Of a DNA stretch of 64,000 nt, positions 47,276 to 55,228 are shown one piece after another. The position numbers and the translations under genes are program-made. The stretch is from Escherichia coli (GTDB taxonomy: Bacteria; Pseudomonadota; Gammaproteobacteria; Enterobacterales; Enterobacteriaceae), in the NCBI RefSeq assembly GCF_041886205.1, contig NZ_CP169029.1. One strand, given 5' to 3'. How positions within the stretch are numbered: position 1 is the first letter of the stretch; every line of letters starts with the position of its first letter. The notes beneath the pieces are model-generated. The model made no database searches. It was given only the letters and a program-made list of their open reading frames with translations, and had not been told where the DNA came from.

Positions 47276-49438
47276 ATGGCCTTTATGCTAAGTCCTTTGC
47301 TCAAACGCTATACCTGGAACAGCGCCTGGCTGTATTACGCGCGTATTTTTATTGCGCTTTGTGGAACCACAGCGTTTCCGTGGTGGCTGGGTGATGTAAA
47401 ACTGACGATTCCGCTAACGCTGGGGATGGTGGCAGCGGCGCTGACCGATCTCGATGACCGACTGGCGGGACGTTTGCGTAACCTCATCATTACGCTGTTC
47501 TGCTTTTTTATCGCCTCGGCCTCAGTAGAATTGCTGTTTCCCTGGCCCTGGCTATTTGCGATTGGCTTAACGCTCTCTACCAGCGGCTTCATTTTGCTCG
47601 GCGGTCTGGGTCAACGCTATGCAACAATTGCCTTCGGTGCATTGCTGATCGCCATTTACACTATGTTGGGAACATCACTTTATGAGCACTGGTATCAGCA
47701 GCCGATGTATCTGCTGGCCGGTGCCGTCTGGTACAACGTCCTGACACTTATTGGTCATCTGCTGTTCCCGGTCCGCCCGCTGCAGGACAACCTGGCGCGT
47801 TGCTATGAACAACTGGCGCGTTATCTTGAGCTCAAGTCGCGCATGTTTGATCCTGATATTGAAGATGAAAGCCAGGCACCGCTGTACGATTTGGCTCTCG
47901 CCAACGGACAGCTGATGGCGACATTGAATCAGACGAAACTCTCGCTGCTGACCCGCTTACGTGGCGATCGTGGTCAACGGGGAACGCGTCGCACGCTGCA
48001 TTATTACTTTGTCGCGCAGGATATTCACGAGCGTGCCAGCTCTTCTCATATTCAGTATCAAACATTGCGTGAACATTTTCGCCACAGCGACGTGCTGTTC
48101 CGTTTTCAGCGGCTGATGTCGATGCAGGGCCAGGCGTGCCAGCAACTGTCACGCTGTATTTTGCTGCGTCAGCCTTATCAACATGATCCGCATTTTGAGC
48201 GCGCTTTTACGCATATTGATGCTGCCCTGGAGCGGATGCGCGATAACGGCGCGCCTGCCGATTTACTCAAAACACTAGGATTTTTGCTGAACAATTTACG
48301 CGCCATTGATGCCCAACTGGCAACAATTGAATCAGAACAGGCCCAGGCACTACCCCATAATAATGACGAAAATGAGCTCGCTGATGACAGCCCGCACGGA
48401 TTGAGTGATATCTGGCTGCGTCTTAGCCGTCACTTCACGCCGGAGTCCGCCCTCTTCCGTCATGCGGTTAGAATGTCGCTGGTGTTGTGTTTCGGCTACG
48501 CCATCATTCAGATAACCGGAATGCATCACGGGTATTGGATCTTGCTGACAAGTTTGTTTGTCTGCCAGCCAAACTATAACGCCACGCGCCACCGCCTGAA
48601 GTTAAGGATTATTGGTACGCTGGTAGGTATCGCCATTGGCATTCCTGTGCTGTGGTTTGTACCGTCACTGGAAGGGCAGCTGGTGCTACTGGTTATTACC
48701 GGCGTGCTCTTTTTTGCCTTCCGTAACGTGCAATATGCCCATGCAACGATGTTCATCACACTTTTGGTGCTACTGTGTTTTAACTTGCTGGGTGAAGGTT
48801 TTGAAGTAGCGTTACCTCGCGTAATCGATACGCTGATTGGTTGTGCCATTGCGTGGGCGGCAGTGAGCTACATCTGGCCTGACTGGCGGTTTCGCAATCT
48901 GCCGCGCATGCTCGAACGCGCCACCGAGGCCAACTGTCGGTATCTCGATGCCATACTGGAGCAATACCATCAGGGGCGTGATAACCGTCTGGCGTATCGT
49001 ATTGCCCGCCGCGATGCACACAACCGTGATGCTGAGCTGGCGTCGGTGGTATCAAACATGTCCAGCGAACCGAACGTTACCCCGCAAATTCGAGAGGCCG
49101 CGTTTCGGTTACTGTGCCTTAACCATACGTTTACCAGCTATATCTCAGCCCTCGGTGCTCACCGGGAGCAGTTAACTAATCCTGAAATTCTGGCGTTTCT
49201 TGATGACGCAGTTTGCTATGTTGATGACGCGTTACATCATCAACCTGCTGATGAAAAACGCGTCAATCAGGCATTAGCTGGCCTGAAACAGCGGATGCAG
49301 CAACTTGAACCACGGGCAGACAGCAAAGAACCTCTGGTCGTACAACAAGTTGGGTTATTGATTGCATTACTGCCTGAGATTGGTCGTCTGCAACGCCAGA
49401 TTACTCAAGTTCCGCAGGAAACTCCTGTTTCGGCGTAA
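47276..49438 (+). CDS. yccS: YccS, FUSC-family inner-membrane protein
   Basis: 720 aa ORF; true start may be the Met three codons downstream. Confidence 0.85.
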   Translation: MAFMLSPLLKRYTWNSAWLYYARIFIALCGTTAFPWWLGDVKLTIPLTLGMVAAALTDLDDRLAGRLRNLIITLFCFFIASASVELLFPWPWLFAIGLTLSTSGFILLGGLGQRYATIAFGALLIAIYTMLGTSLYEHWYQQPMYLLAGAVWYNVLTLIGHLLFPVRPLQDNLARCYEQLARYLELKSRMFDPDIEDESQAPLYDLALANGQLMATLNQTKLSLLTRLRGDRGQRGTRRTLHYYFVAQDIHERASSSHIQYQTLREHFRHSDVLFRFQRLMSMQGQACQQLSRCILLRQPYQHDPHFERAFTHIDAALERMRDNGAPADLLKTLGFLLNNLRAIDAQLATIESEQAQALPHNNDENELADDSPHGLSDIWLRLSRHFTPESALFRHAVRMSLVLCFGYAIIQITGMHHGYWILLTSLFVCQPNYNATRHRLKLRIIGTLVGIAIGIPVLWFVPSLEGQLVLLVITGVLFFAFRNVQYAHATMFITLLVLLCFNLLGEGFEVALPRVIDTLIGCAIAWAAVSYIWPDWRFRNLPRMLERATEANCRYLDAILEQYHQGRDNRLAYRIARRDAHNRDAELASVVSNMSSEPNVTPQIREAAFRLLCLNHTFTSYISALGAHREQLTNPEILAFLDDAVCYVDDALHHQPADEKRVNQALAGLKQRMQQLEPRADSKEPLVVQQVGLLIALLPEIGRLQRQITQVPQETPVSA

Positions 49439-50030
49439 GAGAGTCAGCCCATTCTGCTAGCTCCTGGCGGCGTGCCACCGGGAGCGCAGCTTCATGAATC
49501 CCGATAATGGCACCTTCAAGCATAAACAGAATCTTTTCTGTCACCAGACTGTTTTGCTGCCGCAGTCGCAACCAACACATTTTTGCCCCAAGTATACGTA
49601 ACGCCCGTACATCCTTAATCCCCACCTCCCCGAGAATCGCTTCCAGATGAAAAGACATATTGGGCAAATCTTTCAGTCTTTCCCGGGTATTGCGCGTGCT
49701 TTTCTCTTTCAGCGCTGCATCGAGAGAATATTTCGACAGACGCACCAGCTTCAGTTGATTTCGCCATAGACTTTCATCAACCCGATAGTAATTGAGGGTA
49801 ACGGATCGGCCACACTTTTTATATGTCAGCCAGACAGGCGGATGTTTTACACAGTACTGTGCACTTTGCTCACAAGCCCGAAGATACAACTCACCATCAG
49901 AAACCATCGCAAACACCGTGTCGTCAACGGTCAGGCTGTAACTACCAAACAATGATCGGTATTCAATTGTGCCCAACGTTGCCAGGTATTCTTGTGATTT
50001 ATAGATCCGCTTATAGGAGAGGTTTTTCAT
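49401..50030 (-). CDS. sxy: Sxy (TfoX), competence regulator
   Basis: 209 aa; 3' end overlaps yccS 3' end by 38 nt. Confidence 0.9.
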   Translation of the reverse strand: MKNLSYKRIYKSQEYLATLGTIEYRSLFGSYSLTVDDTVFAMVSDGELYLRACEQSAQYCVKHPPVWLTYKKCGRSVTLNYYRVDESLWRNQLKLVRLSKYSLDAALKEKSTRNTRERLKDLPNMSFHLEAILGEVGIKDVRALRILGAKMCWLRLRQQNSLVTEKILFMLEGAIIGIHEAALPVARRQELAEWADSLTPKQEFPAELE

Positions 50031-50206
50031 AAAATTCCTTTTAAAATCATAATATAAAAGAATGATTCACATTAACGGATCCGTTAAATACGAAAATAGG
50101 CAACTTCTTCTTTAGGGGCAAGATTAATTTATGTTTTCCCGTCACCAACGACAAAATTTGCGAGGCTCTTTCCGAAAATAGGGTTGATCTTTGTCGTCAC
50201 TGGATG

Positions 50207-50226
50207 TACTGTACATCCATACAGTA
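50207..50226. promoter_or_regulatory. LexA operator (SOS box) of sulA
   Basis: TACTGTACATCCATACAGTA, perfect CTGT-N8-ACAG, 23 nt upstream of sulA start. Confidence 0.9.
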
Positions 50227-50248
50227 ACTCACAGGGGCTGGATTGATT

Positions 50249-50758
50249 ATGTACACTTCAGGCTATGCACATCGTTCTTCGTCGTTCTCATCCGCAGCAA
50301 GTAAAATTGCGCGTGTCTCTACGGAAAACACTACAGCCGGGCTTATCAGTGAAGTTGTCTATCGCGAAGATCAGCCCATGATGACGCAACTTCTACTGTT
50401 GCCATTGTTACAGCAACTCGGTCAGCAATCGCGCTGGCAACTCTGGTTAACACCGCAACAAAAACTGAGTCGGGAATGGGTTCAGGCATCTGGGCTACCC
50501 TTAACGAAAGTAATGCAGATTAGCCAGCTCTCCCCTTGCCACACCGTGGAGTCAATGGTTCGCGCTTTACGCACGGGCAATTACAGTGTGGTGATCGGTT
50601 GGTTGGCAGATGATTTGACTGAAGAAGAGCATGCTGAACTTGTTGATGCGGCAAATGAAGGTAACGCTATGGGGTTTATTATGCGTCCGGTAAGCGCATC
50701 CTCTCACGCCACGAGACAACTTTCCGGGCTAAAAATTCACTCTAATTTGTATCATTAA
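50249..50758 (+). CDS. sulA: SulA, SOS cell-division inhibitor
   Basis: ORF 50243..50758; start at [10 protein letters not shown]. Confidence 0.95.
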
Positions 50759-51114
50759 GTAAATTTAGGATTAATCCTGGAACTTTTTTTGTCGCCCAGC
50801 CAATGCTTTCAGTCGTGACTAATTTTCCTTGCGGAGGCTTGTCTGAAGCGGTTTCCGCGATTTTCTTCTGTAAATTGTCGCTGACAAAAAAGATTAAACA
50901 TACCTTATACAAGACTTTTTTTTCATATGCCTGACGGAGTTCACACTTGTAAGTTTTCAACTACGTTGTAGACTTTACATCGCCAGGGGTGCTCGGCATA
51001 AGCCGAAGATATCGGTAGAGTTAATATTGAGCAGATCCCCCGGTGAAGGATTTAACCGTGTTATCTCGTTGGAGATATTCATGGCGTATTTTGGATGATA
51101 ACGAGGCGCAAAAA

Positions 51115-52167
51115 ATGAAAAAGACAGCTATCGCGATTGCAGTGGCACTGGCTGGTTTCGCTACCGTAGCGCAGGCCGCTCCGAAAGATAACACCTGGTA
51201 CACTGGTGCTAAACTGGGCTGGTCCCAGTACCATGACACTGGTTTTATTCCTAACAATGGTCCGACCCACGAAAACCAACTGGGTGCAGGTGCTTTTGGT
51301 GGTTACCAGGTTAACCCGTATGTTGGTTTTGAAATGGGTTACGACTGGTTAGGTCGTATGCCGTACAAAGGCGACAACATCAACGGTGCATACAAAGCTC
51401 AGGGCGTTCAACTGACCGCTAAACTGGGTTACCCAATCACTGACGATCTGGACGTATACACTCGTCTGGGTGGTATGGTATGGCGTGCAGACACCAAGGC
51501 TAACGTACCTGGTGGCGCATCCTTTAAAGACCACGACACTGGCGTTTCTCCGGTTTTCGCAGGTGGTGTTGAGTACGCGATCACTCCTGAAATCGCTACC
51601 CGTCTGGAATACCAGTGGACCAACAACATCGGTGACGCAAACACCATCGGTACTCGTCCGGACAACGGTCTGCTGAGCCTGGGTGTTTCCTACCGTTTCG
51701 GTCAGGGCGAAGCAGCTCCGGTAGTTGCTCCGGCTCCAGCTCCGGCACCGGAAGTACAGACCAAGCACTTCACTCTGAAGTCTGACGTTCTGTTCAACTT
51801 CAACAAAGCAACCCTGAAACCGGAAGGTCAGGCTGCTCTGGATCAGCTGTACAGCCAGCTGAGCAACCTGGATCCGAAAGACGGTTCCGTAGTTGTTCTG
51901 GGTTACACTGACCGCATCGGTTCTGACGCTTACAACCAGGGTCTGTCCGAGCGCCGTGCTCAGTCTGTTGTTGATTACCTGATCTCCAAAGGTATCCCGG
52001 CAGACAAGATCTCCGCACGTGGTATGGGCGAATCCAACCCGGTTACTGGCAACACCTGTGACAACGTGAAACAGCGTGCTGCACTGATAGACTGCCTGGC
52101 TCCGGATCGTCGCGTAGAGATCGAAGTTAAAGGCATCAAAGACGTTGTAACTCAGCCGCAGGCTTAA
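51115..52167 (+). CDS. ompA: OmpA, outer membrane protein A
   Basis: ORF 51043..52167; start at [31 protein letters not shown] linker. Confidence 0.95.
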
Positions 52168-54709: not shown

Positions 54710-55228
54710 ATGGTAGATAAACGCGAATCCTATACAAAAGAAGACCTTCTTGCCTCTGGTCGCGGTGAACTGTTTGGCGCTAAAGGCCCGCAATTGCCAG
54801 CACCGAATATGCTGATGATGGACCGTGTGGTCAAAATGACCGAAACGGGTGGTAACTTCGACAAAGGGTATGTTGAAGCAGAACTGGATATCAATCCGGA
54901 TCTGTGGTTCTTCGGATGCCACTTCATTGGCGATCCGGTTATGCCGGGATGCCTGGGCCTGGACGCAATGTGGCAGCTGGTAGGGTTCTACCTCGGCTGG
55001 CTGGGCGGCGAAGGTAAAGGCCGCGCGCTGGGCGTTGGCGAAGTGAAATTCACTGGTCAGGTACTGCCGACAGCGAAAAAAGTGACCTACCGTATTCACT
55101 TTAAACGCATTGTTAATCGTCGTCTGATTATGGGTCTGGCAGATGGCGAAGTGCTGGTTGATGGTCGTCTGATCTATACCGCCAGCGACCTGAAAGTCGG
55201 TCTGTTCCAGGATACGTCTGCCTTCTGA
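54710..55228 (+). CDS. fabA: FabA, beta-hydroxydecanoyl-ACP dehydratase/isomerase
   Basis: ORF 54512..55228; start at [10 protein letters not shown]. Confidence 0.95.

Follow-up and report, generated by a model that had tools for sequence, protein, structure and literature searches.

The 20-bp site at positions 50207-50226 of the window, the whole 64-kb stretch of Escherichia coli DNA analyzed here, is almost certainly the single LexA operator of the sulA (sfiA) promoter. The site, TACTGTACATCCATACAGTA, is 20 bases long with no strand assigned, and both its sequence and its coordinates were exactly those given in the earlier note on this DNA. Its identification there as the LexA (SOS) box of sulA was borne out by the Pfam and RefSeq assignments of the gene, the identity with K-12, the listing in the literature (PMC3009722), the weight matrix score and the invariance of the arms. 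In the present work, we computed the sequence features, the LexA-box statistics, the position, the conservation and the gene identity; LexA binding and induction were taken from the literature. Among LexA operators the sulA SOS box is a textbook case, and PsulA serves as a standard reporter of the SOS response. Overall, this operator is already known, and is real, conserved and ordinary. The result has little weight as a discovery and its value here is that of an annotation check, in which the box identifies the E. coli sxy-sulA-ompA locus and places the sulA promoter.

The window belongs to the E. coli chromosome, with the local order yccS (plus strand), sxy/tfoX (minus strand, 49401-50030), sulA (plus strand, 50249-50758), ompA (plus strand) and matP (minus strand). 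The sulA coding sequence encodes 169 aa followed by the stop codon, as supported by the open reading frame, the RefSeq start, Pfam and an ATG invariant in nine genera. Its product matched the Pfam SulA family (PF03846) with an E-value of 6.3e-51 and 171 bits, compared to a cut-off of 23.1, and was 99-100% identical to database proteins named SulA. The RefSeq annotation, SOS-induced cell division inhibitor SulA, places the start at the ATG at 50249. Upstream of sulA, the divergent open reading frame possesses both TfoX domains and the intergenic region between sxy and sulA measures 218 bp; the enterobacterial order sxy(tfoX) <- -> sulA -> ompA was present in the window as in K-12. Moreover, the 770 bases from 50031 to 50800 matched 5425 of the 5426 complete E. 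coli genomes, with the underlying feature annotated as sulA. A single one of these genomes was without the sulA region, and four of the 5430 places matched in the complete assemblies were on records labelled as plasmids.

Some minor observations were made on the genes next to sulA. The convergent genes yccS (ending at 49438) and sxy (ending at 49401) share 38 bases at their 3' ends, and the same overlap exists in the K-12 annotation. In the strain LHM10-1 (NZ_CP037903.1), a 100% match at the sulA region, the annotation gives sxy as a pseudogene of 652 bases with a frameshift, and in the window sxy is an intact open reading frame of 630 bases (209 aa). The 22-base coordinate offset therefore indicates an insertion inside sxy of LHM10-1. 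The record of this strain also flags rlmI with an internal stop.

We then considered the box itself. An inverted-repeat search returned two arms of 7 nt each, TACTGTA and TACAGTA, perfectly complementary and with 6 nt between them. The six central bases, CATCCA, are asymmetric. The site had been called canonical, which is fair for the arms but less so for the centre. Compared to the gammaproteobacterial consensus TACTG(TA)5CAGTA (written out, TACTGTATATATATACAGTA), both arms are perfect, and the CTG-N10-CAG core is intact within the 20-bp inverted repeat (CTGTACATCCATACAG, 50209-50224); in contrast, the non-palindromic centre holds all three mismatches of the box, with a C at positions 8, 11 and 12 where the consensus has T, A and T. 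Between the box and the sulA ATG at 50249 we counted 22 intervening bases, the A of the ATG being the 23rd base after the box, in agreement with the 23 nt reported previously for this DNA. The 20 bp were identical to the sulA (sfiA) box of E. coli K-12 MG1655, which lies at the same distance from the ATG and in the same sxy-sulA-ompA context. The identity to MG1655 extends from the box through the ATG, whereas the 218-bp intergenic region differs at five bases: one, C/T at 50195, is located in the 17-nt promoter spacer and the four others are further upstream.

The check proposed in the earlier note, a match to the LexA weight matrix, was run with a matrix trained on 17 E. coli boxes of PMC3009722 (Table 4), the sulA box itself being left out, and both strands were scanned. 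With this leave-one-out matrix, the sulA box obtained 20.7 bits, the best score in the 64-kb window and a value inside the span of the training boxes, the other LexA boxes of E. coli (16.6-30.5 bits). Its leave-one-out heterology index was 6.05, compared to 0.27-9.18 for the training sites, and the published index is 5.4, which is mid-range and not the best (PMC11228462). We observed that 7 of 1000 shuffles of the window reached 20.7 bits anywhere in the 64 kb on either strand. A search for the 20-mer consensus with at most three mismatches returned one match in the window, the sulA box, and none in 100 shuffles.

Such scores bear on the possibility that the palindrome matches the LexA consensus only by chance and has no regulatory role. 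The bare CTGT-N8-ACAG core does occur at chance frequency, with two matches in the window against 0.91 expected and at least two matches in 24 of 100 shuffles; its second copy, at 10256, is located in torA according to the mapped LHM10-1 annotation. The bare core alone is weak evidence and is not significant, and it was dropped as a test in favor of the full-length matrix because it is uninformative in 64 kb. The full 20-mer is strong evidence: besides being so rarely reached in the shuffles, its score stands approximately 7 bits above that of the next site in the window. The remaining points against a chance match, which come from the position, the conservation and the literature, are given below.

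Two other sites were considered as LexA sites and rejected. The runner-up in the 64-kb window, at 910-929, obtained 13.8 bits, has CAC replacing the CAG of the core and is located inside rutD by LHM10-1 mapping; a further site at 54882-54901 obtained 10.8 bits. Neither was better than shuffled sequence, for which the mean of the maxima in the matrix scan was 12.7 bits.

To analyze conservation, we built a footprint from the query E. coli and the loci of eight SulA homologues, whose proteins shared 75-88% identity with the query. The source names assign these loci to eight other genera: Citrobacter, Salmonella (S. enterica), Raoultella, Leclercia, Intestinirhabdus, Trabulsiella, Kosakonia and Enterobacter. 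The ompA gene was found downstream of sulA in all eight, and a called tfoX gene upstream in seven, none being called in the fetched Citrobacter stretch. Across the nine genera, all 14 positions of the box arms were invariant, as were the six positions of the -35 hexamer TTGATC and the three positions of the sulA ATG. In the surrounding sequence, invariance was limited to one of the six positions of the box centre, three of the 17 positions of the promoter spacer, the length of which was always exactly 17 nt, and four of the 22 positions of the stretch from the box to the ATG. The gap between box and ATG ranged from 20 to 22 nt; the value aligned for Salmonella, 21 nt, agrees with the 21 bp published for its sulA box (PMC8072944). 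This pattern is the one that would be expected of a dimeric repressor site with half-sites read by the protein and a fixed position in the promoter.

The sulA boxes of the other Enterobacteriaceae thus have the same arms, the same 17-nt spacing from TTGATC and the same 20-22 nt to the ATG, and differ from the E. coli box in their centres, which read TGAATA, CATGCA, TATCCA, TATTCA or TGTTTA in place of CATCCA. Most of them are nearer to the consensus, with 26-28 bits compared to 20.7 bits for E. coli. The Citrobacter box is identical to that of E. coli.

Regarding the promoter, we infer the exact -35 and -10 assignment, the transcription start and the steric occlusion described below. The probable -35 hexamer is TTGATC at 50184-50189 on the plus strand, which matches TTGACA at four of six positions. 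The box starts 17 nt after this conserved hexamer and its bases 1-6, TACTGT (50207-50212, plus strand), supply the probable -10 hexamer, which matches TATAAT at three of six positions and has the optimal 17-nt spacing. From sigma-70 geometry, the transcription start would be expected 6-8 nt downstream of the -10 hexamer, at 50219-50221 on the plus strand, and so inside the box. A strict consensus scan for promoters and terminators over 49950-51150 returned no terminator and missed the sulA promoter, because the hexamers of this promoter match at only 7 of 12 positions. A permissive count of hexamers returned TTGATC/TACTGT together with two other pairs matching at 7 of 12 positions, GTCACT-18-TACAGT and TCGTCA-18-CATACA. 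Since these two pairs reach the same score, the -35/-10 assignment leans on conservation and spacing: TTGATC/TACTGT is the probable promoter, favored by its optimal spacing and by the invariance of TTGATC in the nine genera. The two other pairs are less favored, their -35 hexamers being in sequence that is not conserved in these genera. In addition, a 67-bp sulA fragment (-1 to -67) carrying the box has served as the promoter of an SOS-GFP reporter (PMC529313). As this fragment works as a reporter promoter, promoter and operator lie within 50182-50248; its 67 bp reach from the ATG to three bases ahead of TTGATC. In searches of open-access papers, we found no mapped sulA transcription start.

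In the SOS pathway, RecA filaments stimulate the self-cleavage of LexA, and SulA blocks FtsZ-dependent cell division. At the site described here, a LexA dimer would bind the two arms, TACTGTA and TACAGTA. Both the probable -10 hexamer and the expected transcription start fall within the box, so LexA on its operator should exclude RNA polymerase from the promoter and keep sulA silent. After DNA damage, RecA filaments formed on single-stranded DNA would stimulate LexA self-cleavage, so that the operator would be vacated and sulA would be transcribed from TTGATC-17 nt-TACTGT. The SulA produced would then block division until repair is complete.

Published data obtained with the identical sequence agree with this scheme. 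Upstream of UV-induced genes, among which sulA is one of the most strongly induced, this 20-mer emerged as the shared LexA motif, and it is listed as the sulA box (PMC3009722, Table 4); the oligonucleotide of the PsulA reporter (PMC529313) and this sulA entry have the same 20-bp sequence as the window. The sulA gene is among the classical SOS genes, with a 20-fold induction by AZT and a 15-fold dependence on LexA cleavage (PMC11228462). The kinetics of LexA dissociation have been measured on a sulA operator probe, sulA has been described as a late SOS promoter with a high UV threshold, and sulA+ strains without lexA are inviable, their division being constitutively blocked (PMC5999292). All the hallmarks of a LexA box that lend themselves to a test in silico were found at this site, and LexA binding and LexA-dependent induction are covered by these published data. 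Returning to the possibility of a chance match, the box coincides precisely with the promoter of an established SOS gene, the nine genera share every base of its arms but vary in the neighboring bases, and binding and induction have been published for this very sequence. The conservation pattern and the published data effectively refute a match without regulatory role, and we give it practically no credit.

A second perfect palindrome, TGGATGTAC-T-GTACATCCA, was found at 50201-50219, with arms of 9 nt that are 100% complementary and separated by 1 nt; it runs across the left half of the box. It could be argued that the functional element is, or includes, this palindrome, as the site of another regulator or as a cruciform, which would explain the centre CATCCA. 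Three of its nine pairs follow automatically from the LexA half-site TAC-T-GTA, and the other six pair CATCCA with the upstream TGGATG (50201-50206), an extension with a chance of approximately 1 in 4096. However, just one to four of these six extra pairs were kept in the eight other genera, including Citrobacter with its identical box, and E. coli strain 789 has two changes that break two different pairs with no compensation. The palindrome would also lie upstream of the expected transcription start and so outside the sulA mRNA. It was therefore rejected as a conserved second regulatory element, not being kept in the eight genera and being broken in strain 789, and we regard a functional role in place of, or together with, the LexA operator as very improbable. 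On these alignments, we take the palindrome to be specific to E. coli, either fortuitous or lineage-specific.

The divergent arrangement of sulA and sxy raises another possibility, that the LexA operator also acts on sxy (tfoX) as a shared operator of the 218-bp intergenic region. For the CRP-S site of sxy, the published half-sites are TGCGA and TTCCG (PMC6728893), and we located this site, TGCGA-N6-TTCCG, at 50159-50174, conserved in eight of the nine genera. Both the divergent transcription of sxy from the same intergenic region and the proximity of this site, which ends 9 nt from the sulA -35 hexamer, would favor a shared operator. Yet, seen from sxy, the box is located beyond the CRP-S site and thus well upstream of the core of the sxy promoter, where it cannot occlude the polymerase. 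Furthermore, sxy is absent from the table of classical SOS genes (PMC11228462). A literature search linking sxy, CRP-S and sulA returned nothing relevant, and no support for a shared operator was found there. We consider an action of the box on sxy to be unlikely, with only a slight chance of being correct. Among all these analyses, no evidence contradicting the reading of the site as the LexA operator of sulA was found.

In the same intergenic region, a perfect 16-bp palindrome, TTAACGGATCCGTTAA, was observed at 50072-50087, 42-57 nt upstream of the sxy start codon. Its core ACGGATCCG and the adjacent GAAAATAGGCAAC were nearly invariant in eight of the nine genera. This palindrome may be part of the sxy leader or a regulatory site.

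The box had also been said to confirm the sulA call and its start site. For SOS regulation and the placement of the promoter this holds, and the start that had been proposed is the right one; the choice of this start needs further evidence, namely an in-frame stop codon and an invariant ATG. The sulA frame is closed upstream by an in-frame TAA at 50225-50227 (plus strand), which overlaps the right end of the box. Because of this stop codon, the sole candidate starts are the TTG at 50243 and the ATG at 50249. The ORF finder opens the sulA open reading frame at the TTG, the first start codon after the stop. Across the nine genera, the ATG was invariant in all nine and the TTG was lost in four, being absent in Raoultella, Trabulsiella and Enterobacter and changed in Intestinirhabdus. 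Judged from these sequences, the box alone selects no start codon, and it is the TAA inside the box and the invariant ATG that fix the start. Taken together, the box and the in-frame TAA exclude any start codon upstream of 50243.

Database entries for SulA include some of 187-227 aa, compared to the usual 169 aa, and one cluster of 187 aa comprises 903 sequences. Should the additional residues be N-terminal, these long models would start upstream of the operator and promoter and would probably be start-codon miscalls. In the E. coli sulA frame, an N-terminal extension is barred by the in-frame TAA at 50225-50227.

We further analyzed the alleles of the operator within E. coli, by counting the 40-mer 50197-50236 among the 5426 complete E. 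coli genomes. The 40-mer was found with a 28-base exact word in 3879 of these genomes, and the counts that follow are approximate, being word-match estimates. The allele of the window and K-12 was found exact in 3463 genomes. The change of C to T at box position 11 (C11T) was exact in 834 genomes, the change of C to T at position 8 (C8T) was present in approximately 496, and T1C, at box position 1 and so at the first base of the probable -10 hexamer, was exact in 33; approximately 200 of the 5426 genomes were unaccounted for by this tally. In an alignment of six E. coli sequences, variation was observed at box positions 1, 8 and 11 only, and all six kept the CTGT and ACAG cores unchanged. The weight matrix scores of the E. 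coli alleles ranged from 19.1 to 26.7 bits, with C8T raising the score from 20.7 to 26.7 bits. According to published work, the off-rate of LexA can vary by more than three logs with the internal bases of the operator (PMC5999292). It is conceivable, if on balance doubtful, that the natural non-core alleles set different LexA off-rates and, through them, a different threshold or timing of SulA-mediated filamentation. This tally is the sole mildly new material here, and it could serve in a search for differences in filamentation threshold between lineages.

Finally, a likeness was observed between the boxes of two cell-division genes. The LexA box of ftsK (TCCTGTTAATCCATACAGCA; PMC3009722, Table 4) and that of sulA (TACTGTACATCCATACAGTA) have in common the 10-mer ATCCATACAG, at 50215-50224 of the window, which includes the non-consensus ATCC. 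The presence of this 10-mer in the boxes of both sulA and ftsK is probably a coincidence.
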